In this document: positions 26,601 through 45,536 of the stretch, piece after piece
How positions within the stretch are numbered: position 1 is the stretch's first letter
How the letters are laid out: every line of letters starts with the position of its first letter
From: Guillardia theta CCMP2712
Taxonomy: Eukaryota > Protista > Cryptophyta
Direction of reading: 5' to 3'
Length of the DNA: 64,000 bases
NCBI RefSeq assembly: GCF_000315625.1
Contig: NW_005434590.1
Coordinates: 275,950-339,949, forward strand
Translations under genes and position numbers: made by a program
Notes under the pieces: generated by a model
The model's input: the letters and a program-made list of their open reading frames with translations, nothing else
Told to the model about the DNA's origin: nothing
Database searches by the model: none

Positions 26601-27527
26601 TGTTGAAGTTCCCAGTAACCTTCTCTCCACAGACGGTGACACAGTCACAGTAGCAGTGACACTCGAAGTAGACAGTGATAGCACCGACTGCAAGTTTCTG
26701 TAGCAGTGGTAATAGATATCACGAATGGCCGCGCAGGAATGATATCAGGATACAGAGAACAAACGGAGGTGATAAGAGATTGGTATAGATGGTCAAGCTT
26801 GTTTACTTCAAGCAATCCAGTCTCACAGAGACCATACACCTCGTTCTCCTTTCCCTGTCCTGCCAATGCGTGCGGCGCTTCTTCCTCTTCCTCGGTCCCT
26901 AAAATAGGGGCTGCCCGGTCCTAGGAACTACCACTACCGGTACTCTACGCTTCTTATCTGCGATATGATTCTTCGACCGGTCCGAGGCCTGGTTCCGTAC
27001 CTTGAGGGTCCCCTGAGAAAGAGTCATAGGCTTGACATGACGAGGTTTTCGATTCTCATCCAACGCTCTCTGTGAAGTTGATGTAGCTGCTCCCTTGACC
27101 TTGACAGGTCCTGTGTCTCCGTAGGAGCATGCTTGGAGGTGGTCTCGTGCATTCCTTGTATGTCCTCCGCTAAGATGATCATGATAGTACTGTCTTCTTT
27201 GATCAGACCCCTTGTTCTCCCATGTCCATGACTTCAGGGGTGATACTTCCAATCTCCCCTTGAGCGTAGCCGTATTCTGCCACCGTGACGGTGTCATCTG
27301 CTGTCCTGTCGTGGACTGATATAAGCTGACTCGCTTATCTCCTGCTGCCATCCACGAGTCCTAAGTTCTTGCTGTCTTCTTCATGATTCTCCTACGTCGT
27401 CCTTATTGTAGCTGTTGCTGTCCTCTCCAGGGATGCATTCCGAGGCTCTAAGCATCTGTGCACTTGAGCCACGTCGATTACTTGGCATTGTCTGAGGTGA
27501 AGCTTCCTCCTATCAGGTGCTTCAACA
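26601..27527 (-). repeat. 5' LTR of the Copia-derived element
   Basis: Direct repeat of 23996-24922. Confidence 0.95.
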
Positions 27528-28608
27528 GAATCAACTCAACATAGACGAAGAGAGAAACTTCTTACCGTATTCATACCTGTTGAATATGATCGATGATATG
27601 GAGCAAAAATACCTTGAGGCAAAAACTAGATACGGTCCACAAGGCTATCATACATACAAGCTACATATGAACACTTTGATCTTAATGTCATATCTGTATA
27701 CGCCACCCCTGCGTTTGGAGCTATCTAATGCCCGCTTCACTAAGACCCTAAGAAATTTAGAACCAGGCAAAAACTACATATACATTCCGCAAAATGGCAA
27801 ACTGGTCAAGTATGTCCTGAATGAGATCAAGAAGAAACACAAACCAATCGAATATGATGTTGGATATCCTATGAATGATGATCCTTTGGCAAAGAGGCTT
27901 ACCGAGTTCATCAAGATGTCCCTTCGTGAGTATCCAAGGGAATACTTCATAACCCTTTATACTGACAAAAATAAGCCAGCTAAAAAAGCAATGACAACAT
28001 ATCTCTCAAGTATGTTCGCTGACCATTCCTTGAACGTGAATATGTTCCGCTCTTCCTACGTGAGTTGGTTGTACTCGAACAATGTTAGCACGAATATATT
28101 GGAAGAAGTGGCATTGAAGATGCGAACAAGCATCTTGACGTTTATGAAGAATTATAAGAAGCTGAATTCTGAACAGATTAGGGTCAAGAGGGAAAGAGAT
28201 GATGATAACAGACCTATTACAATCAATGAGGCGGATGATTCACCAGCGGCTCGGGGGCCTGTCGCAAATCCTATTGCTGCCATTCCACAACCACAACCAA
28301 GACAACCCCATAAGGAGTACAAAGACCCTATCGTCTTAAGACGCGCCAGGGTGAACCGTTACATTGAGAAGACAGGCGGTAGAGAGGCCTTCAATGAGCG
28401 ACAGAAAAAGTACTATAAAGAGAACAGCAAAACTCTATACATCAAGAAACTGTTGAGGATGTACAACACCACCAAGGAGGCAATAGATCCTATCCAACAT
28501 ACCATAAAGAAGTATAAGCTCTACAAGGAAGGGAATGAATGGAAATCTCTGGAGCTTGGGTAAAAAATGATATAAAACAGATATGATAAATATTATATTG
28601 ATAGAGTG

Positions 28609-28875
28609 ATGTTCGACTTGACTTTCTATGATAAAGTCCTTAAATGGTCCGATGAGTTGTCTATAAAACCAACACATAGCAGCGTATTATCTCGTCATCA
28701 AATGTGGTGTCTTAAAAAACGAGGGGATTGTGGTGGAAAAGATCACAGAGATATGGTCAATGATAGATTGTTTGGTCGGTACGTTAAGAGTTGGATGATT
28801 TACTTTGATATGTCATTAGACAAGATACATAATCCAAAAATGCCTTTGAAAGTGATTGGAATTGATAAGATATAA
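28609..28875 (+). CDS. PLV small hypothetical protein
   Basis: ORF downstream of promoter motif 28562. Confidence 0.6.
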   Translation: MFDLTFYDKVLKWSDELSIKPTHSSVLSRHQMWCLKKRGDCGGKDHRDMVNDRLFGRYVKSWMIYFDMSLDKIHNPKMPLKVIGIDKI

Positions 28876-28926
28876 AAAATGAAAAAAAATGATATAAAGT
28901 ATTTAGCAATAATATTATATGATCAT

Positions 28927-29142
28927 ATGAATAAAGAAGAAAAAAAAATGAGCGCATCATTAGAATGGTATTATAAAAAGAGAGAGAATGATCCTGAATA
29001 TGTTCAGAAAGAACGTGAACGTAAGAAATTAGATAATCATAGAAGATATCATTCATCTGAAGAGGAACGACAAAAACAAATTAAAAGATCTCTTGATAGA
29101 TACTATAGAATTAAGGCCCAAAAACTGGCCATCGTTCAATAA
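28927..29142 (+). CDS. PLV small basic helical protein
   Basis: ATG 28 nt after promoter motif 28884; Lys/Arg/Glu/Tyr-rich. Confidence 0.6.
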   Translation: MNKEEKKMSASLEWYYKKRENDPEYVQKERERKKLDNHRRYHSSEEERQKQIKRSLDRYYRIKAQKLAIVQ

Positions 29143-29263
29143 TTCATACAGTTTTTTTGAAAGCATGCTATATTTTACTATTTGTTCTCATTTTTTGTGT
29201 TTTGCCATAAAAAATGATATAAAGATTTCAGCCATAAAATTATCTAACCTAAGAATAAAGGCA

Positions 29264-31588
29264 ATGAACGGTTCAAGCGGTTTGAACAATTACCACTATC
29301 TTTTGAAGAAAGGCTTTGCTTTGACAGCTGTCCACCCCCGCAAGTATGAGGGCGATCGGTTTGTCAAGGGAAAGATCGACGGAGTTGATAAGCCTTATAT
29401 TGATGCTGGTTGGACTAAACAAGAAGTTAATGAGGGGAATGCTTCGGTAGTCTACAACATTATCAATGACAAACCATTCTATGCTGTCCGAACTGGTGAG
29501 ATATCAAACATTATCGGCGTTGACATCGATAGTGACAAGGCTGAAAAAGATGGTATCCCTCGCTCTTTGGAGTTTGAGGAGTGGTGTAAGGCTTCTGGTA
29601 CATATACCATCAAGTCCCCACACGGATATCATTTCTATTTCAGATATGATAAAGATATTAGTAAGAGCGGATCGATACTCGATCATATTGACATTCAATC
29701 AAATGACAAGTGCCTCTTTGCTCCAAATGTCAAACGGGTTGATGGTGTGTATGAAGTCATAAATGAAGCACCTGTAAAGGCAATGCCTGATAAAGTCAAG
29801 AGCTTTATTCTTAAGCATAAACAAACCAGAGATTGTGGGATGGCTGCCAAGCAAGAGAAGGCACCCGAAGCACCCGTCAAAGGTCCTAAAAGTTCAGATG
29901 GGGATGCTGAGGATAGTGAAATAGATGTTGATGATGTTAAAAAGTTGCTCAACCTCATCTCTCCTGATTGCGATTACAATCGTTGGATCAGGGTCCTCGC
30001 GGCAGTCAACAACACTCTCGGTTCTAATGATAAGGCCTATGATATCACCGATGAATGGTCCTCAAAATCTATCAAATATGACCCAAGATCATTTGGTCGT
30101 ATTTGGAACTCGGTAAGGGGCTATGAAGAGATTACAATTGGCACCTTACATCACTATGCTAAGGAAGAACAACCTGAACAATACAAGGAATTATTTGCGC
30201 ATAAAAAAACGAGCATACCAAGAGTTGATATCAGCAAATTGAGGAAATATGAGGATATCAAGGAAGCTTTTGAAAAAGATACGTTTATGGTTTGTATCCC
30301 TCCCGTATATTTTCATAAAAATCGCTATGGTGATAAATACACAGTTGTGAAAGAGGATGGCATCAAACAGGCATATAGGCATCTCAGGTATATCAAGAAT
30401 GTCGGAACAGATAATAAGGGTAATATCAAGACAAAAGAAGCAAGCTTCATCACTGACTGGGTTTCCGACCCTGATAAACGCGTTTATGAATCAGTGAAGT
30501 TTGATCCAAGCAGGAAAATAGATTCTGATATATTCAATACTTTCACTGGATTTGAGGCCGAAAAACATCCCGAAATTGATGAGACGCTTATGATGGAATT
30601 GGTACAACCATACATTGACCACTTTGATATGCTCTTTGGCAGTGATGCTAGAATATTCGTTATGAAATGGATGGCGAACATCATCCAAAATCCAACTCAA
30701 AAATCTGGTGTTTGTTTGCTTTTGAAGAGTGAAGGAGAAGGTTCCGGAAAGACCACACCATTTGAGTATTTCGGAAGAAAGGTGATTGGAAACAATCATT
30801 ATAAGAACACCAGTGACCCAGAAAACGACCTCTTTGGTAGATTTGCTACTGCGATTCACAACTCATTGCTTGTCCAACTTGAAGAGATTAAAGGTGTCGT
30901 GTTTCATAAAAACGCTAGTACGTTTAGAGATATGATAACCAAGAATACAGCACGATGGGAGGTTAAAAATGTCACTGTCAAAGACGATGATGAGAACTTT
31001 GCGAGCTTTATATTAACCACCAACAATGAGAACCCTATAACTGTCACTCCAACTGATAGGCGCTTCTGTGTACTAAATGTAAATGAAGCTATGATTGGGA
31101 ATGTTGAATACTTCGAAAGATTTATTGAAGTGGTAGAACATCCGTCTTGGGGCAGGGCGTTGTTTCAATATCTTAGAGATTTGGAAGGCGTGCCAAAGAA
31201 CATCGCCCAATTCCAAAACCAAAGATATAAAAGCGAGGCTTATGATGATATGCGAAAGCAAAACATCCCTAACTGGGCCAGGTTCTTGATCAATAAGGTG
31301 ATGCTCAAAACTTCTCTCATCAAGAACAACTCTGTTGAAATCAAACCAACAGAAGATGTAAAAGCTAGTAAATTATATGATGAATACGTTCAATACTGCG
31401 AGAAGACACGTGTTGAAGCTGCGACAATGAAACAGACTGGATTTGCTATAAAGATTAAGTCTGTTGAGGGGATCATAAAACAGAGAAGTAGATTATGTTG
31501 TAATTATACGATTGATTGGGAAGCTGTTGAAAAATGGCTTGTCAAAAAGAATTACTGGGATGATGATAATATCACAGTAGAGATATAA
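29264..31588 (+). CDS. Primase-polymerase + PriCT-2 + SF3/D5-like helicase fusion
   Basis: GVDIDSD and SPHGYHFYF (Prim-Pol); DYNRWIRV...DEWSSKS.KYD...ITIGTL (PriCT-2); GEGSGKTT, VQLEE, TTNNEN, DRRF (helicase). Start placed at ATG 29264, after the promoter motif. Confidence 0.9.
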   Translation: MNGSSGLNNYHYLLKKGFALTAVHPRKYEGDRFVKGKIDGVDKPYIDAGWTKQEVNEGNASVVYNIINDKPFYAVRTGEISNIIGVDIDSDKAEKDGIPRSLEFEEWCKASGTYTIKSPHGYHFYFRYDKDISKSGSILDHIDIQSNDKCLFAPNVKRVDGVYEVINEAPVKAMPDKVKSFILKHKQTRDCGMAAKQEKAPEAPVKGPKSSDGDAEDSEIDVDDVKKLLNLISPDCDYNRWIRVLAAVNNTLGSNDKAYDITDEWSSKSIKYDPRSFGRIWNSVRGYEEITIGTLHHYAKEEQPEQYKELFAHKKTSIPRVDISKLRKYEDIKEAFEKDTFMVCIPPVYFHKNRYGDKYTVVKEDGIKQAYRHLRYIKNVGTDNKGNIKTKEASFITDWVSDPDKRVYESVKFDPSRKIDSDIFNTFTGFEAEKHPEIDETLMMELVQPYIDHFDMLFGSDARIFVMKWMANIIQNPTQKSGVCLLLKSEGEGSGKTTPFEYFGRKVIGNNHYKNTSDPENDLFGRFATAIHNSLLVQLEEIKGVVFHKNASTFRDMITKNTARWEVKNVTVKDDDENFASFILTTNNENPITVTPTDRRFCVLNVNEAMIGNVEYFERFIEVVEHPSWGRALFQYLRDLEGVPKNIAQFQNQRYKSEAYDDMRKQNIPNWARFLINKVMLKTSLIKNNSVEIKPTEDVKASKLYDEYVQYCEKTRVEAATMKQTGFAIKIKSVEGIIKQRSRLCCNYTIDWEAVEKWLVKKNYWDDDNITVEI

Positions 31589-31611
31589 TTAGATTGATGG
31601 TTAGTCTTTCC

Positions 31612-31827
31612 CAACCCTACACAAAATCACAAACCCTACACAAACCCTACACACTCTATTTTCCTTACCATAACAATGTCATTATATTATTTTATTTAGT
31701 ATAAATAGACACTAGTGTGTAGGGTGTGTAGGGTGTGTAGGGTTTGAAATGAGTTGAGGGAAATAAATAAAATAAAAAAAAGGGTAACTCATTTCAAACC
31801 CTACACCCTCCACACCCTACACACTCA
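31612..31827. repeat. Internal copy of the ACCCTACAC iteron module (putative replication origin)
   Basis: Same forward-reverse-forward repeat layout and spacers as ~21500-21730. Confidence 0.75.
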
Positions 31828-31930
31828 GTAACAAATATAGAATGTTTCCTATAATAATCTTACCATCTCAGTCACATAATAGGAAATGTGGATAGTTTTG
31901 ATGAAAAAAAACAATCTCCCAACAATATAA

Positions 31931-32254
31931 ATGAGCAAGTATACCTATGCCTCTCTCTCTCCATCTCAAGCAAAGCACAAGAAGTACAAGTTAGTACTCT
32001 ATGACAAAGATCAGAAGAGGATCAAGACTGTTCAGTTCGGTGATAGTCGATATCAGGACTTCACACAGACCCACAATGATCAACTTAGGAAGTACTACAT
32101 AGCGAGACACGATAACGGTCGTGAGGATTGGTCGGTCCCTGATACCCCCGCATCCTGCGCAAGGTGGATCTTATGGGATCAGTACACAAAAGAGAAAGGA
32201 TTTGAGAACTACCTCAGGCGATTCCACTTGAAGCGCCTAGATCTGTCTGACTAG
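31931..32254 (+). CDS. Tlr6F-like (DUF5754-like) protein
   Basis: KHKKY...TVQFG..RYQDFT..H....R..Y..RH...ARWILW pattern typical of this PLV/virophage/giant-virus family. Confidence 0.8.
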   Translation: MSKYTYASLSPSQAKHKKYKLVLYDKDQKRIKTVQFGDSRYQDFTQTHNDQLRKYYIARHDNGREDWSVPDTPASCARWILWDQYTKEKGFENYLRRFHLKRLDLSD

Positions 32255-32780
32255 GATGGTTAGAATAGCCTCCGAGTATATAAGGAATATATCTATGTTT
32301 AGATATGACAGACCCCATATTACTCTTGATGAATTCTGGGATCCCATTCACAGACTCCATAAGAGTGTCATAAGACTGGATGTAATTATTCAGTTTGTCG
32401 GAACTAATATCCCTATTAGTTAAGGTCTGTTCAATGCTATGCTCTAACTTACTAAATTTGCTTGCGAGGTCGTAGTACAAACTCGCTTTTTCACTTATCT
32501 TCAATTGGCTATTTACACCTATTAATACAGCCGTGACCGTATTGAAAACGATATTTATAATTCTCATTATTTTATCGTCCTGAAAACTGCCATTTAAGAC
32601 AGCAAGTGATGATGATAAGATGATCAATGGGATCATAACTATCTGCTTCCACAGATTATACCATCCCGCGGTTCTATTACATAGGATGCTCATGATCCTT
32701 GCCATCTCTTTGTACTTCTGCCATAGCTCGTTCTCATTGCTTTCAGTTCGTTCCAGTCTGACATTGATGTCAGGCATCAT
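32214..32780 (-). CDS. Two-transmembrane (SLATT-like) protein
   Basis: Two hydrophobic helices (IVMIPLIILSSSLAVL; IINIVFNTVTAVLIGV) followed by a helical cytoplasmic tail. Confidence 0.6.
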   Translation of the reverse strand: MMPDINVRLERTESNENELWQKYKEMARIMSILCNRTAGWYNLWKQIVMIPLIILSSSLAVLNGSFQDDKIMRIINIVFNTVTAVLIGVNSQLKISEKASLYYDLASKFSKLEHSIEQTLTNRDISSDKLNNYIQSYDTLMESVNGIPEFIKSNMGSVISKHRYIPYILGGYSNHPSQTDLGASSGIA

Positions 32781-32981
32781 TGGTCCTTATATATACATTA
32801 GAAGAATATTGGAAACCTTGTAGTGTCCCATCAGCGGCCACATACTGCCTTCCCTCCATAATCAATCTAATGCTATGATTCAACGCATCCAGATGCTGTC
32901 GATTGTGTACTGAAGATATTATTTTTTCGTTGGCCATCCATCACTATAAGAATAGTCTAAAAAAAAGATAAGACGTGATGA

Positions 32982-33221
32982 TCACAAGCGTCGAAGCTGA
33001 TTTTCCATATTCTGGGCCTTCTCCAAGCCATTCTGAACCAATCCAACACCTTGGACAGCCTGCTTACTCAGCTCATTGATCTTTGCCCCTAAAGGGTGCT
33101 GTGTCAGTTTCCCTCCAAGCTCACGGTTGACGGCAGATCCAATCCTTCTAGCCATCACTAGACCTTGTCCCAGTCGCCTAGTGAAATTGAGTGCCTGTCC
33201 TAGTCTTGATGTAAGAGCCAT
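32982..33221 (-). CDS. Small basic amphipathic protein (possible virion core protein)
   Basis: 79-aa ATG ORF with repeated RLGQ, at the end of the structural block. Confidence 0.6.
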   Translation of the reverse strand: MALTSRLGQALNFTRRLGQGLVMARRIGSAVNRELGGKLTQHPLGAKINELSKQAVQGVGLVQNGLEKAQNMENQLRRL

Positions 33222-33314
33222 ATTCTTTTAACTATAGATAGATTTTTTTATAACCTTTTCCGCTTTGCGCAAAAGCTTAACCAAAAACAGCGGCGCCGGG
33301 GGCCGCAACCCCCG

Positions 33315-34166
33315 CTAATTAATGTTCATATACTGAGTTATGATCAGATACAGTTCCTGGAGATAGTCAACGATCCTCATCAATAATCTCAAAACCTTCT
33401 CTTGATAGATATTTGAATCATTCTTTACTTTCTCGAACCTAAGGTGTAAGAAGAAATCATTGAATCTTTCGAGAGTTCTATTTTCCTCATTCGTTAGCCT
33501 AAGCGTAAACTGATCGATTGTATCTGATTGAGTGTTTATTATAGACCTCCATCTGCTATCATAAGGAGCTTCATAATTGATAAGAGAATTGGGTGCTTGA
33601 TTCACGACAAATGAAAACAATATATCGTTGGGATAGAACTGATCGGTCTCGATATTTGCTAATCCACTCTGATTCAGCCCAATATCCCCATCGATCCTCA
33701 TAAATATAAGCTGATCCGATGTCATATTGATTGGGAAATCGCTATACACTCCATCAGTTGTAATAAGGATATCCTCATCATTGTTGAATCCTAAGAACTG
33801 TGAGCAGTTGACACACCTAAGAGTGACATTGTTTCCTGTATTGCTAGCAAAAAACCACTTGTTAAGCCTTGGAATATATGACACATCTATCTTTTCGTTC
33901 AGCTTGGTCTTGAGCTCCTCCTCCAGCTCATATATATTTGGGTTGCCCTCATCAAGTCTCACTAGAACATCATCAATCATAATAGTATCGTTGTAACCAT
34001 ACTGAATGTTCTTCCAAGAAATCACAGACTGGAACGAGACAACTGAGACTACCCACGACTGATTTCTTTTGCTTTGAATGTAACTGTTTGGGAGGTTGAC
34101 CATAACAACACCACTCGATTTAATACAGTTCTTCGAGTTAATGAAAAGATTAACCGTGTCTTCCAT
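33315..34166 (-). CDS. Minor capsid (penton-like single jelly-roll) protein
   Basis: LFINSK, NI..G.ND, GNPNIYEL and terminal F.LRLTNE...F.L.L.F patterns typical of PLV minor capsid proteins; position in the structural block. Confidence 0.75.
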   Translation of the reverse strand: MEDTVNLFINSKNCIKSSGVVMVNLPNSYIQSKRNQSWVVSVVSFQSVISWKNIQYGYNDTIMIDDVLVRLDEGNPNIYELEEELKTKLNEKIDVSYIPRLNKWFFASNTGNNVTLRCVNCSQFLGFNNDEDILITTDGVYSDFPINMTSDQLIFMRIDGDIGLNQSGLANIETDQFYPNDILFSFVVNQAPNSLINYEAPYDSRWRSIINTQSDTIDQFTLRLTNEENRTLERFNDFFLHLRFEKVKNDSNIYQEKVLRLLMRIVDYLQELYLIITQYMNIN

Positions 34167-34195
34167 TGAAAGCTACTTTTACAATAGTCAAATAT

Positions 34196-37100
34196 TTAAA
34201 GTATCTTAGTGATCTGCTCAGGGTCCCAATCCCTTGTATCCTCTTGTGTCTCTTGTTCCTCATCATAGACGATGAAATTGAGCAGCAGCTCGTCAAGATC
34301 TGCCTTTGTGCCATCAACAAGCCTCAAGCTCAGCCTCTGGCCGCCTTGAAGCAGCCTATCATTTACCTTGAAGTTCTTTTGGAACTTATAAGATGAGTTC
34401 TGATAGGTGCTTGTCGCATTGCTTTCTACCACAGTTGGTTGGATATCCAAAGCAACATTGTATATCCTTAGATCTTTGAGCTCACCGATGAATTCTCCGA
34501 TGACAAGCCCATCAACAAGATCGGCGGTGATAGCCTCTGAGCTATCGATTACAGTCTGTTCAACGCCATCGATGTATATCCTATTGACAGCCTGATCATT
34601 GGTGAACGCATAGTTATGCCAGAGGCCATCATTGATATATCCATTTGTGACAACCGAATAATAGTTGATTGAACTGTTCAGCTTGAATTCAAGATCGCCT
34701 GTGTCCTTCCCGCGAATCATTAGTTTATCGGTCTCATCACGCAATATAGTATCAACCCCAATACTGTTATAACCTGTAATCTTCAAATCAAAGGATATGG
34801 TAAGCCCAGTCTGTCCCTGACTGATAATGTAATATGGCACCTCAACAGAAGTAGACCTAGTCTTATCGGGTGTATCATCAAAGGATTGTAACACATAACC
34901 ATAGGGGCTTACCTCTGTGAATGTGAAATCATTGTAATATACCTCTCTTGTGTATTGAAGGACGACATAGCCATTGATTCCATCGGTCCCATTGAATCCA
35001 CCCTTTCCGACATCAGTGATTGGAGTGAATGGCAAGGGATCGGTAGGAGCTCCACTGGTTCCACCTGATGTGCTCTTGCCTGCTATGCCTCCTTTGTGGT
35101 CTAGCTTAGTCACTGCTGAGTGCCCCCAGTAGGAGGACCCACCACCACCACCAAAGAAAATTCCACCATTATATCCCGCACCACCACCGCCCCACCAACC
35201 AGCCCCGCCTCCATTCCCATATGAAGAATTAGCATCACCACCATAGAACTTACCTCCAATGTTTCCATCATTCATAGCATCACCAGCAGCTCCCCCTGCT
35301 GTCTGACCTCCACCGCCTCCGCATTTGATATCTCCATCTTTTCCTTTCCCACCATCTGCTCCTGTTCCATCATCCCAAGGACTGCCCTTCCCACCTCCAC
35401 CGCCAGCACAAACAGTATCTCCTGTGGTAAGAAAACTAGCATATCCCGAACCAGCACCACCACTTCCAGCAATTGCAAGAGCGGTGCTCGTGTTACCAAC
35501 CCTGTTGCTAGTTATTCCAATACTTCCACTAAAAAGTCCAGTCAACCCACCACCACCTGCTCCATGATCACCATTTCCATCGCCTCCACCTGTCCAAGCT
35601 GGATTATTCACTCTGCCACCCTGCCCAACCAACAACTTGATATCTGTCATATTTGTAACATCGACCTTACACTTCAAGAAAGCACCACCGCCGCCACCAT
35701 AATGGATATCACTGAATGTTCCTCCGCCACCACCAGCCCCCCAAACATAGGCCGTGATCTCGGTGACTCCCGAGGGAACTGACCAAGTATAAAGCCCATA
35801 ATCTGTGCCTACATCTGTTCTTGTGTCATCATACGTGAATGTCTCAGTGAAGACTGTCATTTGCTGAAAGTATTTTTGAACCGATCCAGTGTATAGCTCA
35901 GAGACTTGGTCGGCTGTCAGTTCTGTATTGTAGATGCGGAAGTCATCAACAAGACCATCAACTTGTTGTCGTACATCATTGAATCCACCTGAAATGTAAT
36001 AGACATCTCTTTGTCCTGCTAATGGATACTTTGCTGATGTGGTTGTATATTTAGAGACATTATTTACATATATTCGAATCGTAGCACTAGAATAACCACT
36101 AGCATCTCGTACAGAAGTTTGTTTAACATTTAAAACAATATGATTCCACGAATTATATGTATATAAATCATTGGCGCTTGTATTGCTATAAGGAGTGTCT
36201 GTATAGAATACATAATAAATTAAGTTTTTAATAGTACTGTCTGAGAGCAAAAGAAAGCAATTTCTGTAACTATTATCCAAGTCTTGAAAATCGAAAAGTA
36301 TTGGATATCTATTATCACCAGCACCTTTCATATAGACCCAAAAACTGACTGATACAGCTGTGTTATTATCAAACAATGTAGCAATTGGGTCACCAGCCTG
36401 TACATCCATCTCGCAATAACTAATATCACCAGCAACATAGTTCATATCCAGCGCTCCATTTCCCTTAACAGAGCTTGATGTGATTGTTGGATAATTTCCA
36501 GTGGTCCCCTTCCTCTTTAATCTAAGCTTTATCTGATTTGCGCTGTGATCAATGAAATAATTGCCATTGGCATCACTCTGTAAATCTTCTTGTTGGAACT
36601 TATACCAGACCAATGGATCGATATCATTCCCTGAACCATCCTTCAATACTACATAACCATTCTTAACGAATCCAGAGGGTAAGGCACTGACTCCATTGCT
36701 ATCTTTCAAGTCAATGCTTCCAGCTGTTGAGAAATCAATTGTGTAATTGCCAGAAGATGTTATGTTGTATGTGTTGGGCAACGTTGTATCACTAGGGAAT
36801 GTTAATTCATCGCCGATCCTTAGATAGGTTGTTGTTGTAGTGTTGATAGTCTCTGCTGACCAGACAAAGCTCTGATTCAATGGTATCTGGTTAAAGTCAT
36901 AATTATTGACACTATCAACATAGTTGTTGTTGAAGCTGTACTTTGCTATCAGATCGGTCTCGGGATACTGATAAGCAGAAGATGTTGAGGAAGCAAAGAT
37001 AGGAATAGCATAAAGCAAGGCTCCAAGACTAGACTTATAGAAGCTGTCATAAGCGTCTGTATCATCAAGGAACTGGTCAGCGTACAGCTTGATGTAGTTT

Positions 37101-37273
37101 TGCGATGTGTTCTTGGCCTGGACATTGTTCAAGACTATCCTGGCATTCTTTGATAGGACCTGTTGATTGGGCAGATTGAGATTCCAAGTGACAACATCTG
37201 ATTTGGTGCTTACATCATCATTAAGATCAAGATGTAAATCAAATATCTTTTTAGGTTTGAACAGTGATACCAT
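34196..37273 (-). CDS. 1025-aa putative spike: capsid-like scaffold with inserted LamG-like and glycine-rich domains
   Basis: N- and C-termini align with the 177-aa neighbour; LamG motifs SVSFWV, WNHIV, DDFRIYN and LWHNYAFT, DLRIYN; VWGAGGGGG...GGGGSSY Gly-rich domain. Confidence 0.8.
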   Translation of the reverse strand: MVSLFKPKKIFDLHLDLNDDVSTKSDVVTWNLNLPNQQVLSKNARIVLNNVQAKNTSQNYIKLYADQFLDDTDAYDSFYKSSLGALLYAIPIFASSTSSAYQYPETDLIAKYSFNNNYVDSVNNYDFNQIPLNQSFVWSAETINTTTTTYLRIGDELTFPSDTTLPNTYNITSSGNYTIDFSTAGSIDLKDSNGVSALPSGFVKNGYVVLKDGSGNDIDPLVWYKFQQEDLQSDANGNYFIDHSANQIKLRLKRKGTTGNYPTITSSSVKGNGALDMNYVAGDISYCEMDVQAGDPIATLFDNNTAVSVSFWVYMKGAGDNRYPILFDFQDLDNSYRNCFLLLSDSTIKNLIYYVFYTDTPYSNTSANDLYTYNSWNHIVLNVKQTSVRDASGYSSATIRIYVNNVSKYTTTSAKYPLAGQRDVYYISGGFNDVRQQVDGLVDDFRIYNTELTADQVSELYTGSVQKYFQQMTVFTETFTYDDTRTDVGTDYGLYTWSVPSGVTEITAYVWGAGGGGGTFSDIHYGGGGGAFLKCKVDVTNMTDIKLLVGQGGRVNNPAWTGGGDGNGDHGAGGGGLTGLFSGSIGITSNRVGNTSTALAIAGSGGAGSGYASFLTTGDTVCAGGGGGKGSPWDDGTGADGGKGKDGDIKCGGGGGQTAGGAAGDAMNDGNIGGKFYGGDANSSYGNGGGAGWWGGGGAGYNGGIFFGGGGGSSYWGHSAVTKLDHKGGIAGKSTSGGTSGAPTDPLPFTPITDVGKGGFNGTDGINGYVVLQYTREVYYNDFTFTEVSPYGYVLQSFDDTPDKTRSTSVEVPYYIISQGQTGLTISFDLKITGYNSIGVDTILRDETDKLMIRGKDTGDLEFKLNSSINYYSVVTNGYINDGLWHNYAFTNDQAVNRIYIDGVEQTVIDSSEAITADLVDGLVIGEFIGELKDLRIYNVALDIQPTVVESNATSTYQNSSYKFQKNFKVNDRLLQGGQRLSLRLVDGTKADLDELLLNFIVYDEEQETQEDTRDWDPEQITKIL

Positions 37274-37307
37274 TGTGACTGGTATATTTATAAAAAGAAA
37301 AATATTA

Positions 37308-37841
37308 TTATTTCAACCAATTAGGCTGGTTCGATTTGTTAGAGATAAGCTGATCAGCACTCCAAGGTCCCGTATCTTTTTGTAACTCGATCTCCTCGTC
37401 GTAAACCACGAGGGTAAAGAAGAGCTGTTCAATATCCACCTTGGTAATGTTCATAAGATTGATGCGAAACTGATTGGTTCCTGATAAGAAGTTCTCCTTA
37501 CACTTCCAGTTCTTTGATATCTTTGGGTTATAGTTTTGATATGAGACAGTCGCGGCATCTTTGCCAACATTGAATAGCACAGCACCATAGATGCCATTGC
37601 CCTTGCTATCAAATGTAAGGGATGTATCAACATCATTTGTATACAGATAGACGATATCTGTTGTGTCAACCTTCTTGATATATAAGGAATCCAATACAAT
37701 CCTAGCATGTTCAGACAGGATTTGACCGGTTGGATTCTTGATCTGCCAAGTTAGAGTGGTAGCCGAATCGCTGGTCTCTTGTACATCATTGATATCGAAG
37801 CTGAGGTGTATCAATTTCTTAGGCCTGAAAAGTTTAGGCAT
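37308..37841 (-). CDS. Putative small beta-rich structural protein (minor capsid-like), paralog of the 1025-aa protein termini
   Basis: Shared LF.PKK, LS..ARIVL, GA.L, YQN....KN.K, VYDEE and DT..W motifs. Confidence 0.75.
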   Translation of the reverse strand: MPKLFRPKKLIHLSFDINDVQETSDSATTLTWQIKNPTGQILSEHARIVLDSLYIKKVDTTDIVYLYTNDVDTSLTFDSKGNGIYGAVLFNVGKDAATVSYQNYNPKISKNWKCKENFLSGTNQFRINLMNITKVDIEQLFFTLVVYDEEIELQKDTGPWSADQLISNKSNQPNWLK

Positions 37842-37860
37842 TTATATAACTGGCATATTT

Positions 37861-38169
37861 TTATTCGATCACCTCGATGCCCTGAACTATGCCACTGATT
37901 TGATCAGCCTTGTCCTTCATCTCTTCGATCTCTTTCTTCAATTCTGGATCCTTCTCATAGTCTGGTTCGGTCTTATCTGGATGGTATAGATAGTCAAGAC
38001 AGGCTGTATAGAGGATTGATGGGGGGATGTCTGGATACATCTGGCTGATATTGTTCACCATTTCCATTGCCTCCTTATGCTTCCTGTCTCTCTCCTCCTC
38101 CTCCTCGATCTCTTGGAGCTGCTGTGAGACGTCGATGAATTCACTTCCGGTCATCTTTATTATAAGCAA
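37861..38169 (-). CDS. PLV hypothetical protein
   Basis: Tightly packed ORF downstream of the ATPase. Confidence 0.65.
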   Translation of the reverse strand: MLIIKMTGSEFIDVSQQLQEIEEEEERDRKHKEAMEMVNNISQMYPDIPPSILYTACLDYLYHPDKTEPDYEKDPELKKEIEEMKDKADQISGIVQGIEVIE

Positions 38170-38172
38170 CCA

Positions 38173-39084
38173 TTAAAATTCTAGGATTCTATCCCAACAT
38201 CTCAAGAAGTGGCCACCATCTGGGCACCTAGGGTGGTTGTTTACGGTAAGCCAGTTATACTTCTCTTCAATACAGTGTTCATATAATTGTTCAAACACCT
38301 CTGGTTTTACTAGGCCGCTGATCTCGTCATATATACCTTCCATAATCACCTTCTTGTTCATACATCGATATATCATATACACATCGATGTTGTTTCGTAC
38401 GATCTTTGGGATGGATTTGAGATTTTGAGTTGTGAATATCATATTGATGCCGTAATGCCTATGCTTGATTAGGAAGTTGCTAAGCTTGTTGTTCTTCTTT
38501 GTGTTGAAGGCCTTGTTATCTGAGATGAGATCATCGAAGACAAAGAACACCACAGGTGGCTTCTTGTATTTAAGATTGCCAAAGGCGACATCAGGCTCTT
38601 GGAAATCGTACTTATAGAGCAATTCAAGTTCATCCATTGTCAATCTGTCTTCACCGACCTTCATCCATCTGCTATAAGCCTTCTTATACTGATCATATTC
38701 CTCTATGTCCTTCTTTATCTGCTGGACCTCATCAATCTTCTCTTGGAGTTTATCCTCAGAATACTCATCAACAACATCATTCTCAAGGTCTAGCTGCTTG
38801 ACTGTCTCTAATATGGTATTGGATTTGCTCTGGACGGTAGGAGAGAACCACACCACCTTGATATCGATCTTCTTGCTATCCTCTGGGTCATAGAACGGGT
38901 ACTTTTCATAATGGTGGAATAATTTCGCTATCCCGAATGTTTTACCGCAATTCTTAGAGGCTACCGCAAGTATTGAACAGTACACAGGAGGCAGGAAAGG
39001 ATTATCGGAAGTTGGAAGCTTATTCTTCTTGTAAGGTTTAGGCTTGTTATCTAGCAATGGTATCTGGTGCTCTGTTATATCCAT
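38173..39084 (-). CDS. A32-like (FtsK-HerA) genome packaging ATPase
   Basis: Walker A ASKNCGKT, Walker B FFVFDD, RHYGINMIFTTQ, IPKIVRNN. Confidence 0.93.
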   Translation of the reverse strand: MDITEHQIPLLDNKPKPYKKNKLPTSDNPFLPPVYCSILAVASKNCGKTFGIAKLFHHYEKYPFYDPEDSKKIDIKVVWFSPTVQSKSNTILETVKQLDLENDVVDEYSEDKLQEKIDEVQQIKKDIEEYDQYKKAYSRWMKVGEDRLTMDELELLYKYDFQEPDVAFGNLKYKKPPVVFFVFDDLISDNKAFNTKKNNKLSNFLIKHRHYGINMIFTTQNLKSIPKIVRNNIDVYMIYRCMNKKVIMEGIYDEISGLVKPEVFEQLYEHCIEEKYNWLTVNNHPRCPDGGHFLRCWDRILEF

Positions 39085-39163
39085 TTACTAATTGATAAGA
39101 AATTAGTAATAGCTAGGCCTTAGCAGATCACTAACATAATTGAGGCGTTCCTGGTTGACCTTC

Positions 39164-39643
39164 TCACGCAATCGTTCGTTGATCGCGTTCAAGGCTTGTT
39201 AATCTTCCAAGATTTTTATCATCAGAACCATGGTGGGGATAGCGTGGCTCTGAGCGTTTGACTCTCCTAACCACAATCTCCTCATCGCTCTCTTCTTCGT
39301 CATCGCTCTCCTCGATAATGATCTTCTTCTTCTTCTTAACAATCTTAGATACCTTGGGCGGATCATTTTGCTCCTGTGCTGGTTCGACTGGTTTAGCAAC
39401 GAGCTTTTCCACAGTCTTATCAAACTCATCACCTTCCTTCTTCAAGGCCTCCATTTTGATTAATTTGTTAAACTTGCTCTTTTGATTCAACTTAGCTTTT
39501 TGCTTTCTTGCTTCCTCTGCTTTGATGCGCATTAATTTGAGACGTTCCAAAAGTTCTGGCGAGCACTCCTTTTTCTGCTTGGTGACCACCTGTGCTTGTT
39601 GGTCAACATCTGTCTCTTCAATGACCTTCGGTTTTCTTCCCAT
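39164..39643 (-). CDS. Lys/Glu-rich PLV protein
   Basis: ATG 39643, MGRKPK...LERLKLMRIKAEEARK...KKKKKIIIEESDDEEE. Confidence 0.7.
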   Translation of the reverse strand: MGRKPKVIEETDVDQQAQVVTKQKKECSPELLERLKLMRIKAEEARKQKAKLNQKSKFNKLIKMEALKKEGDEFDKTVEKLVAKPVEPAQEQNDPPKVSKIVKKKKKIIIEESDDEEESDEEIVVRRVKRSEPRYPHHGSDDKNLGRLTSLERDQRTIA

Positions 39644-39681
39644 TTGTAAGAAAGTAAAGAAAAAAAAATTACTTAAATTGC

Positions 39682-40026
39682 TCAAGGGCCATGAACTGGC
39701 CGAGCCATCTTTGGAACATCCTTAATATTGTGCTTAGTGTACATCACAGTAACATCACGATTACCCACCATCTCTTGAAGCATTGGTTGGAAATCCTCGT
39801 AGTTAACATCTGGCCTCGATTGCTTGGAGTTGTAGATGTCACGCTTAAAAGCTGTGTCACGCTGCTGATAATAGTTAGAACTGGTAGGATAGGGCATTTT
39901 ATTGATATCATCGTTTGGATGGATCCGCGGGTTCACAGTGTGATGATCGACTTTATTCACTTCGATATCTAGGAAGCTTAAATGGTTCTTGTAACCATAG
40001 CTGAACGTGCTTGGTTGGAGATACAT
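39682..40026 (-). CDS. PLV hypothetical protein (114 aa)
   Basis: ATG ORF directly after the major capsid gene. Confidence 0.65.
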   Translation of the reverse strand: MYLQPSTFSYGYKNHLSFLDIEVNKVDHHTVNPRIHPNDDINKMPYPTSSNYYQQRDTAFKRDIYNSKQSRPDVNYEDFQPMLQEMVGNRDVTVMYTKHNIKDVPKMARPVHGP

Positions 40027-40062
40027 TCTTCTTTTAATCTAATGCGAGATTATTTAGTCTAG

Positions 40063-41560
40063 TTAATTGATACTAATTTGGTTTCCTGAACCGATAGTCA
40101 AATGTCTTGTTTCACAGCAGATGATAAGAGGTAACCATACCTGGTCTGAGGAACTCTTACCAGATGTAACGCTTCCTCGCGTGGACCACTCGATAGAAAC
40201 AGGGAGCTGCCTTGTGTCGAGGCCTGAAATAACCATAGTGCCTCCCGCATCGCCAACGTGCGATAAACTAAGGGTGTCGCAGAAGAAGTACTTCACATAA
40301 TCGCTAATACTCTTATTCCCAGCATAAAAACCAAGATCAGCAGACTGATGAAGATTGAATGCTTCAACTGTGTTCTGAATACAGTTCATCAGATTGGATG
40401 GAACCTGTGGTAGCTTCTCAGATCCGATGGTCCATTGGCTGGTGACGAGCTCTTCACCATTCCTTTGGAAGTATACGGTTTGGTTGAAGGTGTTTTCTGA
40501 TGGTCCTAGGATAAGGGCCTCTCCAAGGGTTTTGTCAGTTGGTAGCACAAATCCACTCACTTTAGAGAGATCATCGCGGTCAGCCCTGATGAATGTCCCG
40601 ATCATATAATCGAGACTATCGCTTGCGATTGTGAACCGTGTCGTTTGCGACTTATACGGGCTTGCCTGGCCAAAGAATGTGGTATAGTTTGGAAAATAAA
40701 GCTCGTAATTTGTCCCTTTCATAAGCTGATTTTTAAGGCCCTCATAATACCATCCAGGCATATTGATTTTGGTCACGTTGGCTTTGATGTCGCTTAGCTT
40801 ATAGCTTGGGGCTGGAAATATATTCTCGCTTGCTGTTGTAGAAGTAGTTCCTTTAGAATTTCCCAAAACAGCAGCACTTGCAAATGTGATGCTGATCTGA
40901 ACTTGACCAATCATTGAAGTATCTATGACGTTAATGTTTCCTTGCTGTAGGACACCTAAGAAATTTTTGATGAAATAAGTTGATCTGTCCTTAACAAGAT
41001 TGCTATCAAGAGCTGTTGTGCTAACAAATCTTGCAAATCGTGCGTATGTACTAATGGTGCCATCATCATTGACAACGCTCTTGCTCGAGGGATCCACATT
41101 CAGACCACAGCATTGAGCGCGGCCCATAGCATCTTGGTTTAGTGCCACAATGTCAAACAAGATGTTCTGGATCATGGCATAATCGGTGATCACGGTGCTG
41201 AACCACAACGCCATTGAATTTTATTTGTATCTCTTGGATAAGACTGTAAGTGTTCCTCGGGAATCGGAGAGATGTCACAGATTGTGACCCAGATGCTCCT
41301 GATAGAACACCGTTTGTTGTCTCTCCAGTAAATTCCAAGCTAAAGGTCGACAGATCAAGCAATGAAGAGTAAGGCAACGTGATCTGGATCTTCTGGTTAG
41401 GTCCAACCGTGGAGGGCGTGGTAGGCGTGATTTGTATCTTGGTTTTCGACATGTTCGCTAACGAGCGCACCCGCCATTGTAAGTTAGTTGGAACGTACAT
41501 TCCAGCCGTTTCAGGAGAGGGCCCAGACATTGCGGCTTGCGACATTGCGTTTTGAAACAT
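40063..41560 (-). pseudogene. Major capsid protein (double jelly-roll, PgVV-like PLV type), frameshifted near 41190
   Basis: Two overlapping ORFs. N-part has ITLP..SLLDL.TF and FPRN..SLIQ.I.I..NG; C-part ends SGLDTR...HLTIG.G.QI. Removing 4 nt gives a 497-aa protein. Confidence 0.82.
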
Positions 41561-41607
41561 CTTTGCTTTTAAAAGACAGACAGAAAAAAAAATAAGATTT
41601 CAAATTC

Positions 41608-42417
41608 TTAATTTAAGCCGTATTTTTTCCTCAACATCATCTCATAATGTTCAAGGCTGCTTGGATGAGAAATAGTATTTGCATGATAAGCCCTCGATAG
41701 TATCCCCCATAATCCATACTTAGTGATGAGGTACTGCGATAGCTTATGGATAGGATTCGAGAATGAATGTTCAAGCTGTATCTTGTATTTTTCAAACAGC
41801 TCGATGAATCGAATCTGCCTGTTATAAGACATATTCGAGAACCTCACAATCTGGTCTCTTGTCCAATCGCTCAAGGCCACAGAGGGTATCTCTACTTGCT
41901 GGCCTGGAGATCTTGAACCGGCTGCCGGTGAGTTAACTTCATCTTGTGACATCGGTCCGCTGTCTTCAAATTCCGACTCGTTAACTCCTCCTGATCCGAT
42001 GCCTAAGGCTTGGTTCATAATAGAATCGGTCTGATTAAACGATTCACGCTCTGGTTTGATGACATCTGGGGCTAAATCTTGAACATTGTTGTCATCATTC
42101 GGTGCTAATTGTTGACTGACCACATCAGGATTGTATTGCGTTGGGATTTCAGTGCTCCCCTGTGGTTGGGTTGCCGCAGCACCATATCGAGATGGAATCC
42201 CTAACCCCTCGTTATTGTACATTGGCAGGCTAGGGGCCTTGTTCATATATGGTATAATGTTTTGTATGTGTGCCTGACTGGGTGGCTCAGGATCATCAGT
42301 GTTGGATTGGAGCTCTGGAATATATTTATTCTTCGATTGCTGATTGTTCTCATTTTTAATATTCACCTCAACATTTACACCTGTCTTCCTATTTCTTACT
42401 TTGGTCTTCACAGTCAT
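41608..42417 (-). CDS. PLV hypothetical protein (269 aa)
   Basis: Intact ATG ORF upstream of the major capsid gene. Confidence 0.7.
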   Translation of the reverse strand: MTVKTKVRNRKTGVNVEVNIKNENNQQSKNKYIPELQSNTDDPEPPSQAHIQNIIPYMNKAPSLPMYNNEGLGIPSRYGAAATQPQGSTEIPTQYNPDVVSQQLAPNDDNNVQDLAPDVIKPERESFNQTDSIMNQALGIGSGGVNESEFEDSGPMSQDEVNSPAAGSRSPGQQVEIPSVALSDWTRDQIVRFSNMSYNRQIRFIELFEKYKIQLEHSFSNPIHKLSQYLITKYGLWGILSRAYHANTISHPSSLEHYEMMLRKKYGLN

Positions 42418-42441
42418 TTATCTTATTGATTGAAATTATTT

Positions 42442-45400
42442 TTAACTACAATGATATGAACATCCTATGAAAACAGCTATATACTCAACTCCTTGGTAAG
42501 TCTCATATCGATGCTTAAAATTCTTGTAATACCAATCTGAATCTTCATCAATAAAATCAACTGAACAGCTTGTCTTGGCTACTGTATAATTATGAAGTAA
42601 ATCATCAGATTGCTTCATACTGTATCCCTTGATTGGACTTGAACATAGATAATCGCCATTCTCTATGGCTTCAACGCCATAATTACAGCACCATATAGCC
42701 CCCTCGCCGACCGCATTGATCATAACTCTATTGTTGTCAAGCTTAGGATATGAATAATGCCACCTTCCAGTCTTATAGATTCTTTTATCTCCTCCCTCCA
42801 CGTTGGAGATCACACCATACACAGCTTTGTCACATTGAATGTCTGTTAATTTGATTATTGGCAGCGAGCTATCAATGCGAATGTTAGAGCTAAAATCATA
42901 ATCTGTTCTATTCAAGTCTTGATAAAATCCAGTGGTAGAAACCAATAGACCCTGATAGTAGTCAAGGTTAGATGTTATCTCATCTAATAGATTTGAGGTT
43001 ACAGCAATACAACGATGAGAGCCCGTGAAGTCTAGATCATCATTGGCATTGTCATTATGTCTCAACCATTGCTCACCTGTATCATCTAAAGCACCATATT
43101 GAAACATCAAATCATTTGTTGCGCTGGTTCCTCCAAATGATACAGAATTCAATAATTTATAAATAACCCATTCTCCACTATCAACAGCACCAGAACCACC
43201 CTTGGGTATATAGATACGGTCCAAGCTTATTCCAGTACATTTGACATAATTATCTGTTATTCTTCCCCATTCTCCAAGATTTAAATAACCTTGATCATTC
43301 ATTGAAATACCTTTGTAAATAGCGCATCCACTAGATCGTCCATAAAGTCTTGTCCAAGTGCTGTCACTCTGTAAAATTTCAGTGCCTGAAATATGATAGC
43401 TCCCATCTGTTTCAATGTTGCCAGTAGATGAAATTGATGAAGGACTAAAAGCACCACAACTCAATGTGCCTGAACAAGTAACATTTCCTATCAAAAATGA
43501 TGTTAGGCTAACATACAAAGTGCCTGTGACCTCCAAATCATCGGCATAATCTGTGGCGACTAGATTCCCATTGACGGTCAAATCTCCCGAGCATGTAACA
43601 TTACCGGTAAAGGATGATGTGCCTGTTACACTTAGATTATTCCCACAGCTTACGGCTCCGGTTAAGGTTGATGTGCCTGATATGCTTAGATTGTTTGCGC
43701 AATTGATATTAGCAGCAAAATCAACATCAACGGTTATAGTTCTAAAATCAAAATTGGTTCCATGTGGATAAATCTTAATAACCTCTCTTTCTTTTACAAG
43801 AGCACCATATCCAGACATACCAGTTGCTGAAAATCCTTGATATGGATTTGCTTTATCACCTCCAAGTATTGATATAGAAGCATAAGTTGCTCCCTTTGTG
43901 ATTGTTTCAGTTGCTGAACCACTTGCCCAAGTTGATGAAGTGTGAACATGAAAAGCTAAGTTTGTTTTCCTATTTGTTCTTTCATCTGATGGTGTGCCTA
44001 AACTGTTTTGAATAACCAAGGATTTGCTTTCAATCCACGTATTATTGTTTGCTTCATCAAGAGCAACATCAATATTATTTTTGTACTTCCATCTATTATT
44101 GACATCGTCATAAATGCCCCATTCATTATTGCCATCATGCGTAAATACAACCCTGCCATCAATGCTGTATCCTTCCCAATTATTAGTTCCTGAACCATTG
44201 ATTTGAACACTGCCATATTGACCTGAGACAGTTGATAAATAGTTTGTATCGTTGATGTATAGATCCCCAACTCCAATGTTCAACCCATCAATATATTCCT
44301 TGGTGTAATAGTTCTCGTTAGAAGTGTCAATCTCGGTCTTGGTGTAATAATTGGGTAAAACAACATCATCAAGAAACAATGTCTTACCTTTGAAGATTGT
44401 TTTGTAGTCTCTCAAAACATTGATCATCTCAATAATACCACCAGAGGTTTCGCTTTCCTGTAGTGTAAAACCAAACACATGTTCATCTAATTCTGTTTGT
44501 GTCAGTTCATTCCCTAGTGTTAAGATCTCCTCGCCTTGGAATGATATAAGCCTGCTATCTAATTCAGTAGTAGGGTTTCCTTCAACATCGATCTTATATG
44601 TGCTATCATATACATATGCTTCGCCAGCAGCTAGATTGAGTTGTGATCCATCTGTTGTGTTGCGTGAATATATCTTGATTGCTCTGTCTTGATGAAGTCT
44701 ATGTATTATCTCTGTCTCTAACAGATTTATAACAGTGCCAATAGCAAGTCGTAAAACATTGATCCAGTTCAATAAAAACAAGCCATCGGCCTTGCTAGTA
44801 TTCAAGGATGAAGCTATCAACCCCCCAACAAAACCAGCACCAGCGGAAGCAAAGTCGCCCAGCCCAGAGAAGATATCGAATGCGCTATTTGCTGTATCAA
44901 CTATATCTCCAAGATTGGCTTCATCATCTGGGTTTGATATGCTGTTAACACTATCTACTAGTCCATTGATGCTATCAATGATGTCCTGAACAGTAATATA
45001 TGAGCCATCTTGCTTTCTCAAACTGATTGTATAGGTAGCCGCTTGATCATCATAGAGCAATTGGATCAGATCGGAGTCATTGTTGAACAGTGCTGTCAAT
45101 GTTTGATTGTTGGCATTCTCAGCTAGGTTTATGATAGATTGTAAGGTAGATATTGCGTTGGAGTTGTTTTCAACATCACTTGATAAATCTGTTATTGTTG
45201 ATTGTAAGGTGTCAATGCTCGTGGTGTTGGCATCAACACTTGTTTGTAGGGTGTCAATGCTCGTAGTGTTGGCTTCAATGCTCGTTGCGTTGGCTTGAAT
45301 GTTCGCTGCGTTGGCTTCAATGCTCGTTGCGTTGGCTTCAATGCTCGTTGCGTTGGCTTCAATGCTCGTTGCGTTGGCTTGGATATCATCTGTGTTTGTA

Positions 45401-45516: not shown

Positions 45517-45536
45517 TTAATTAGAATGAAGATTAA

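Follow-up and report, generated by a model that had tools for sequence, protein, structure and literature searches.

Bare and expanded jelly-roll paralogues, likely penton proteins, in a Polinton-like element of Guillardia theta

Introduction

What becomes of a small capsid-like protein when some 850 residues are set into its middle, and what might the added residues do? The question is raised by two adjacent genes in the window analysed here, which is a stretch of 64,000 nucleotides from the cryptophyte Guillardia theta CCMP2712 (RefSeq assembly GCF_000315625.1, contig NW_005434590.1, positions 275,950 to 339,949). The genes belong to what is likely an endogenous Polinton-like virus (PLV) and encode proteins of 177 and 1025 amino acids (aa), the ends of the larger protein resembling the two halves of the smaller one. 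The answer that we favour, as probable rather than assured, is that the bare and the spiked paralogue are both pentons of the integrated PLV, and that an attachment spike of 850 aa arises from the outward FG loop of the larger one and has had its inner LamG domain swapped.

A gene pair with a common core

The 177-aa open reading frame (ORF; 37308..37841) and the 1025-aa ORF (34196..37273) are co-oriented on the reverse strand with 34 bp between them. BLASTP aligns the two proteins in two blocks, an N-terminal block with an E value of 1e-11 and a C-terminal block in which residues 953-1021 of the large protein match residues 97-165 of the small one (27/69 identical, E 8e-15). Shuffle tests gave z values of 20.1 for the N half and 23.5 for the C half, none of 500 shuffles reaching the score in either case, and revealed no likeness of the small protein to the insert of the large one (z -1.6). 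The shared core is identical at 57 of 167 positions (34%), and in a joint alignment the small proteins display one clean gap spanning residues 99-956 of the large protein. A first-pass annotation of the locus had noted that the ends of the large ORF align with the halves of the small one and had named the significance of this similarity beforehand as the point on which the idea would stand or fall; the similarity is significant by both BLASTP and shuffling. The annotation put the matching ends at about 90 and 70 aa, of which the C-terminal extent holds and the N-terminal one is too short, the true figure being about 100 aa. A further extension of the N-terminal BLAST block to residue 128 is a chance match (z 0.7, with 127 of 500 shuffles reaching the score).

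Homologues of the 177-aa protein include P0001-P0005, P0018 and P0019, and P0005, a 41% relative, has 12 extra residues at the site of the large insert. On sequence evidence, the two genes are paralogues and their jelly-roll halves homologous. In a tree of eight cores the large forms stand apart from the small ones; the tree has no outgroup, so the direction of change is not given by it, and expansion of a bare ancestor into the large form would be the parsimonious course.

Fold of the small protein

An AlphaFold2 (AF2) model of the 177-aa protein, made from an input alignment of eight rows, has a mean predicted local distance difference test (pLDDT) score of 72 and is all-beta, with only strands in its core. 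The strands (residues 8-16, 29-33, 47-57, 64-68, 85-92, 98-102, 111-114, 124-130 and 137-148) follow an order typical of a jelly roll. The prediction is thus of an eight-stranded single jelly roll with BIDG and CHEF sheets, and C-H, B-I and D-I contacts are predicted in the large protein.

The model was aligned exhaustively with VIA against 48,161 chains. The six best matches were 6ncl_a6 (Z 8.8, root-mean-square deviation (rmsd) 5.2, 139 residues aligned), 8h2i_bG (Z 8.2, rmsd 4.6, 141 aligned), 3j26_N (Z 7.9, rmsd 4.1, 132 aligned), the mavirus penton 6g41_A (Z 7.7, rmsd 3.3, 123 aligned), 8rbt_S (Z 7.2, rmsd 3.4, 116 aligned) and 8roq_M (Z 7.0, rmsd 5.6, 141 aligned), with cement and carbohydrate-binding jelly rolls below the pentons at Z 5-6. 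Only 6g41 among the six carries the word penton in its title. We take 6ncl_a6, 3j26_N and 8roq_M to be pentons as well, and the chain at rank 8, from an iridovirus, is presumably the iridovirus penton. Judging by length, the two best matches are presumably the P1 and P1v1 chains of PBCV-1. The chains 8h2i_bG and 8rbt_S fit published penton lengths (PMC9617893; PMC11006232).

A Foldseek search against predicted viral structures returned 16 matches at E <= 0.001, the best of them a 161-aa adintovirus protein (E 7e-6, TM score 0.53). Among the listed matches of a Foldseek search against the PDB, the TM score was highest (0.42, at rank 36) for the PBCV-1 chain 6ncl_a6. The protein belongs to no Pfam or NCBIfam family and drew two weak PHROG matches; a feature-score comparison gave no lead (best 0.78), and a PDB sequence search with the 177-aa family and the large protein gave no useful match. 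The description of the small protein as capsid-like can be sharpened, on the AF2, Foldseek and VIA results, to a predicted penton-like single jelly roll.

Anatomy of the large protein

The large protein opens with the N half of the jelly roll, strands B-F (aa 1-100; 36974..37273), whose counterpart in the small protein is likewise aa 1-100 and which has predicted contacts with aa 977-1006. There follow, all on the reverse strand, the first strand region of an outer, split LamG domain (aa 101-140; 36854..36973); a stretch of no family, here called segment A (aa 141-217; 36623..36853); a complete inner LamG domain, the variable cassette (aa 218-462; 35888..36622; Laminin_G_3, E 4e-15); a glycine-rich domain (aa about 475-774; 34952..35851; 30% Gly, with a Gly_rich_2 match of E 3e-4 that lies below the cut-off); the remainder of the outer LamG domain (aa 778-948; 34430..34942; Laminin_G_3, E 1.4e-10); and the C half of the jelly roll, strands G-I with a tail (aa 953-1025; 34196..34417).

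The landmarks DLIAKYSF (residue 107), DPLVWYKF (219), DDFRIYN (443), the Gly-rich stretch, LTISFDLK (824) and DLRIYNVAL (934) occur in the order that the first-pass annotation had described, namely the start of one LamG domain, a complete second one, a Gly-rich domain and the rest of the first. The nesting that it saw in the insert also stands and is two levels deep, with the jelly roll enclosing the outer LamG domain, which in turn encloses segment A, the inner LamG domain and the Gly-rich domain in tandem; the latter two lie side by side, as far as shown. What it missed was the segment A of some 80 aa, which is highly conserved in the orthologue described below.

Against the LamG/concanavalin-A-like family (PF13385, cut-off 27.6 bits) the inner domain scores 56.6 bits and the outer remainder 42 bits. 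Because the Pfam model lacks the first strand, and because the strand of the outer LamG domain, when compared directly with the inner domain, gave no significant match, we assembled a profile of our own; it draws on 10 whole domains among 12 motif-bearing frames of 19 viral loci. Residues 106-127 match positions 3-25 of this profile with 10.1 bits, which is the best window of the protein and is reached by none of 500 shuffles, and residues 804-942 match positions 51-203.

Whether the termini form one domain had likewise been set in advance as a test of the idea, and they are predicted to do so. Co-folding of aa 1-140 with aa 778-1025 scored 0.66, compared with 0.01 for the best of three controls. 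Among solved complexes 51 of 78, and among mismatched pairs 2 of 108, come up to the mark used; the runs have at least 51% of their contacts in common, with a partner pLDDT of at least 58. The jelly-roll contacts join residues 25-34 with 977-985, and 7-17 and 43-56 with 988-1006; the LamG contacts join 107-115 with 932-940. These pairings agree with the strand labels B, C, D, H and I. A single-sequence model of the full-length protein (pLDDT 31) was not used. The two ends of the protein are thus predicted to co-fold into a jelly roll, the outer LamG domain to close on itself through its first and last strands, and the insert to lie between strands F and G. An insertion of the virophage, P1v1 or adintovirus type in the D-E loop is not seen: the alignment is ungapped across this loop (aa 58-63), and the insert comes after strand F, at aa 100/101, with strand labels that derive from models. 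Insertions in the FG loop are exterior in the PBCV-1 capsid-protein fold (PMC9617893).

Segment A has no match in Pfam and none to the Gly-rich cores, and is likely a small beta-rich stalk domain. The idea that it is a Gly-rich core minus its loops was dropped (z -0.7 to 1.2 in six comparisons). With profiles for the ALK/LTK-type glycine-rich domain (PF12810, PF21722) the 1025-aa protein reaches 21.3 bits against a cut-off of 24.3, and its orthologue 36 bits against 24.5, so that ALK_LTK_GRD exceeds its cut-off there. The Gly-rich domain is predicted to be a polyglycine-type bundle with variable loops, and the LamG domains, judging by their family, would bind carbohydrate.

An orthologue with a different inner LamG domain

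A cluster look-up yielded P0020, a full-length orthologue of 1011 aa with the same layout and 52% identity. Along the protein, identity to P0020 is 57% in the N half of the jelly roll, 67% in the LamG strand, 83% in segment A (across residues 141-222), about 20% in the inner LamG core (45 identical of 184 aligned), 78% in the anchor that follows, 42% in the Gly-rich core, 89% in the next anchor, 52% in the outer LamG domain and 61% in the C half of the jelly roll. The inner cores of the two orthologues barely beat shuffled sequences, 39 of 500 of which score as high, although each core belongs to a LamG domain (of 245 and 212 aa respectively). The GC content at third codon positions is 0.26 in the inner LamG core and 0.41 elsewhere in the gene (Fisher p 4e-5, with borders taken from protein identity). 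A metagenome contig fits both flanks of the domain and does not fit 35950-36637 (aa 213-442), and another contig of the same run fits the inner LamG domain of the window. In the Gly-rich domain the Gly runs are kept and the loops differ between the orthologues.

The simplest reading of these sequence comparisons is that the inner LamG domain was replaced through recombination at conserved anchors. The suggestion of the first-pass annotation that the insert is an exchangeable cassette therefore finds support in P0020, with a narrower scope, since it is the inner LamG domain and not the whole insert that appears to have been exchanged.

Similar LamG domains occur in the viral contigs L017, L016 and L004, and a similar Gly-rich domain in P0009, in different orders. 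The pattern suggests that LamG and Gly-rich domains are drawn from a shared pool of modules.

How the pair might work

In the proposed mechanism the jelly roll of the large protein would join the vertex pentamers and the insert would rise off their outer face. Each insertion would enter and return within a loop, and for that reason the anchor would stay intact. The outer LamG domain and segment A would lift the inner LamG and Gly-rich domains off the capsid, where these would bind surface glycans (or proteins). The bare paralogue would fill the remaining places, either in mixed pentamers or by forming bare vertices separate from spiked ones, and it may dilute the spikes because five inserts of 90 kDa would presumably crowd one vertex. 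Anchoring of the spike to the capsid, and recognition of a host or helper virus by it, would be in keeping with what the first-pass annotation envisaged; the target would more likely be the protist host than a helper giant virus. Co-resident elements could recombine at the conserved flanks, replacing the inner LamG domain and altering specificity. The fullest version of this scheme, in which a penton has been turned into a self-contained, re-programmable receptor-binding spike, its lectin slot, set two domains deep in the FG loop between near-invariant anchors, being swapped by recombination among co-resident elements and its bare paralogue keeping the spikes of mixed pentamers apart, is a tentative proposal that we think has somewhat less than an even chance of being right.

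Alternative explanations

Several observations weigh against the penton spike or parts of it. The fold of the 177-aa protein derives from eight aligned rows, a chain other than a penton stands seventh in the VIA list (Z 6.7), and Foldseek found no match to the model in the PDB at E <= 0.001. Z values of 7-9 are middling, the tool itself stating that unrelated models typically reach 7-8, and the structural case for a penton would lie in the run of pentons topping the list and not in the Z values. The domains of our LamG profile were picked by a motif resembling the strand under test, a choice that tilts the result towards a match; on the same profile P0020 scored weakly with the remainder of its outer LamG domain (3.6 bits). 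The halves of split domains tend to pass the complex test through likeness to solved folds, so the co-folding result supports the layout and the likeness, not capsid assembly. A single full-length pair underlies the swap. The joint in the metagenome was read at a likeness of 80%, the intervening letters being unread; taken alone it is weak evidence, and the contig may share the population of P0020 and so perhaps is not independent. The copy of the element looks decayed, with a capsid gene in two frames and an interrupted recombinase-like gene, and may no longer be able to form particles. Lastly, a neighbouring protein of 283 aa may be the working penton.

This neighbour (33315..34166, reverse strand), from its size and place a possible third and more usual minor capsid protein, is the basis of the main rival explanation. 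It could be the penton, in which case the 177-aa and 1025-aa proteins, though penton-derived, would decorate or cement the particle from docking sites elsewhere on the capsid or on the penton, with the insert still on display. The 283-aa protein, which has no significant likeness to the 177-aa family, adjoins the pair and has feature scores of 0.96-0.98 to unnamed viral clusters of 295-383 aa, the size class of the mavirus and Sputnik pentons. Three vertex proteins would be many for an element of 25 kb, and the middling structural Z values suit this explanation as well. We nevertheless think it unlikely, for the six best VIA matches are pentons and stand above the cement and carbohydrate-binding jelly rolls, and viruses with two or four penton genes have been described (PMC9617893; PMC13196603; 10.64898/2026.06.19.733378).

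A second alternative accepts the penton spike and denies the exchange, the inner LamG domain having diverged fast under diversifying selection while structure held its flanks. Only two full-length sequences bear on the point, both inner cores retain the LamG end motifs, the Gly-rich loops vary too, and exterior insertions of PBCV-1 capsid variants are reported to be far less conserved than their bases (4-22%; PMC9617893). Divergence of this kind is hard to square with the abrupt fall and recovery of identity (83% to 20% to 78%), with inner cores near the shuffled level when the outer LamG domain retains 52%, with the difference in domain length, or with a shift of third-position GC at the same borders, and we judge it rather improbable.

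According to a third alternative, the target of the penton spike is not the host cell but a helper giant virus, whose glycosylated surface the spike would bind for hitch-hiking or virophage-like entry. Recognition of host or giant virus has been proposed for the insertion domains of virophage pentons (PMC6048507), giant-virus contigs (L004, L016) carry similar LamG domains, and a separate fibre-like gene of the element could serve host binding. However, Gezel-14T, an isolated PLV that has a helper virus, is thought to enter alone (10.1101/2022.07.28.501842), the LamG arrays of cryptophyte PLVs have been interpreted as host attachment modules (PMC12220804), and no helper is known for the present element. 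Attachment to the host is weakly favoured, and a helper-virus target seems doubtful.

The junctions of the large ORF were compared with other contigs. One contig (run X1, perhaps the source data) spans 33000-42500 without difference, a contig from a second study bridges the N-terminal junction without difference, and a freshwater metagenome contig with 115 differences bridges the C-terminal junction together with the 283-aa gene. Contigs of this metagenome also connect the small gene with the beginning of the large gene; the gene order in relatives was deduced from such contig pieces and from P0019 and P0020 both listing a longest contig of 7,653 bp. A last alternative would make the large ORF a product of chimeric assembly, or else a fusion that arose once in a dead element. 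Damage elsewhere in the element and the failure of a direct homologue search to return a full-length relative might speak for this alternative, but it has next to no chance of being true and is refuted by the contigs from three studies that bridge the junctions and by P0020, in which the whole layout is retained in an open frame at 52% identity.

The surrounding element

The endogenous Polinton-like element (21401..46398, with no strand assigned) is about 25 kb long and is bounded by terminal inverted repeats (TIRs) of about 580 bp (21401-21979 and 45827-46398; 90.6% identity across 585 bp). Its GC content is 0.42, compared with 0.53 and 0.51 in the repeat-rich flanks. Size, TIRs and GC content are those of an endogenous PLV (14-40 kb, TIRs, GC unlike the host). 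Library profiles identify a primase-helicase (PriCT_2, DUF5906), a DUF5754 protein and a SLATT-like protein. A likely A32-like packaging ATPase (38173..39084, reverse strand; Zot, E 9e-8; Pox_A32, E 0.0035, below its cut-off) lies 330 bp upstream of the penton-like gene pair. The putative major capsid gene (40063..41560, reverse strand), which we so label from its size, its place and a motif, is split by a break near 41190 into two frames that overlap (135 + 383 aa). It matched nothing in Pfam, PHROGs, NCBIfam or the PDB sequences, among which there is no PLV capsid profile, and for this reason the element is only likely to be a Polinton-like virus. The frames 41153-41560 and 40063-41214 would be the two halves of this gene; run X1 has the same letters there, and a metagenome contig that crosses the break has 4 gap positions.

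A 1024-aa fibre-like protein (42442..45516, reverse strand) has a coiled-coil start of 7-residue repeats and a middle of bactofilin-like beta repeats (Bactofilin, E 3.6e-6), with tandem 21-nt repeats in the gene; it is attachment-like, and the element may thus possess a second attachment system. Between 23995 and 27527, two identical 928-bp direct repeats with TG...CA ends enclose 1.7 kb without long ORFs. This insert, which resembles a long terminal repeat element, separates the ORFs 23145-24098 and 27586-28563, likely a single recombinase-like gene; the recombinase label of 27586-28563 is our assumption, no library match having been found. At 31612-31826, between the primase-helicase and the structural block, the hairpin-rich part of the TIR is repeated internally (74-78%), and this copy could be an origin or a site of recombination between modules. 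A 24-nt inverted repeat (88%; 34199-34222 and 39118-39141), at the end of the large gene and in the region upstream of the ATPase gene, encloses both paralogues and the ATPase gene.

Immediately beyond the right TIR is an ORF for a GIY-YIG nuclease (46481-46984), and host repeat resumes near 47025. A 210-bp direct repeat (21195-21403 and 47025-47234) flanks the element, which interrupts a host repeat array. From 47230 to 64000, units of 3-7 kb with P-loop ORFs of 630-644 aa, presumably Crinkler-like, recur in both orientations, and the left flank (14619-18827) holds Gypsy-type retrotransposon ORFs with a chromodomain (protease, RNase H, integrase, chromo). Endogenous Polinton-like viruses are known in protists, and the present element fits them (PMC12220804, PMC4642659); with the PLVs described from cryptophytes it has the accessory genes DUF5754, SLATT and PriCT_2 in common (PMC12220804).

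Comparison with known systems

The closest parallel is the P1/P1v1 pair of PBCV-1 (PMC9617893). P1 is a penton with a bare single jelly roll; its paralogue P1v1 bears a large insertion on the exterior, and this insertion too is nested, with domain II (210-367) lying within domain I (59-203 and 370-385). In that giant virus the insertion is in the DE loop and comprises about 330 aa, P1v1 occupies a unique vertex and holds a separate spike, P1 and P1v1 are found at different vertices, and the paralogues are about 10% identical (PMC9617893). The present pair differs in its FG site, its insert of about 850 aa with LamG and Gly-rich domains, its 34% identity, its adjacent genes in a 25-kb element and its varying inner module.

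In the tectiviruses PR772 and PRD1, the bare penton P31 and the homologous host-recognition spike P5 share a vertex heteropentamer (3 P5 + 2 P31), which could serve as a working model for mixed vertices of the present pair; the spike of P5, a bacteriophage protein, is a trimerising C-terminal extension, whereas the present cargo lies inside the jelly roll (PMC6750898). Pentons of virophages (mavirus, Sputnik), adenoviruses and adintoviruses and of EhV-201 have, as here, a jelly roll split by inserted domains, the EhV penton with a 538-aa insert of five domains and the adintoviruses with bare, duplicated and insert-within-insert pentons. Where these accounts state the site it is the DE loop, and they do not describe the inserts as LamG or Gly-rich (PMC6048507, PMC11071296, PMC11006232). 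The LamG-array fibres of cryptophyte PLVs carry Laminin_G_3 modules in long modular proteins interpreted as attachment proteins (PMC12220804). In the gp38 adhesin of T-even phages a glycine-rich bundle is the stable platform for variable specificity loops; the likeness is one of analogy only, and gp38 sits at the tip of the tail fibre (10.1101/2023.11.25.568672).

Bare-plus-expanded penton pairs, nested inserts, duplicated pentons and PLV LamG fibres are therefore already in print, and in view of P1/P1v1 the general design is less new than the first-pass annotation assumed. Neither the literature searched nor the supplement text of PMC12220804 yielded a penton whose FG loop carries a LamG and Gly-rich insert with an inner lectin that varies; Fig. 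S6 and the tables of that paper, like closed bioRxiv supplements, may hold such a layout. Scans of viral and metagenome contigs for related loci confirmed none, no longer relatives of the 177-aa protein were found, and tblastn against GenBank phages gave no match. A search with the large protein returned nine proteins that share mainly Gly-rich domains; P0008 was dropped as a relative, being a chance repeat protein.

Implications for Polinton-like viruses

Minor capsid proteins of PLVs are not easily detected. If the prediction is right, a penton divided by 850 residues can lie within a protein of 1,000 aa that would pass for a LamG fibre in annotation; length-limited searches miss split pentons, so such pentons may be under-counted. 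For the recognition of a host or helper virus by PLVs the gene pair offers what would be a named, testable determinant, as two natural versions of one 240-aa domain occur in the same scaffold. Should the proposal prove true, a small DNA virus of eukaryotes would have, built into its capsid vertex, a tropism switch like that of phage tail fibres, and the content of the lectin slot would predict the range of hosts or helper viruses.

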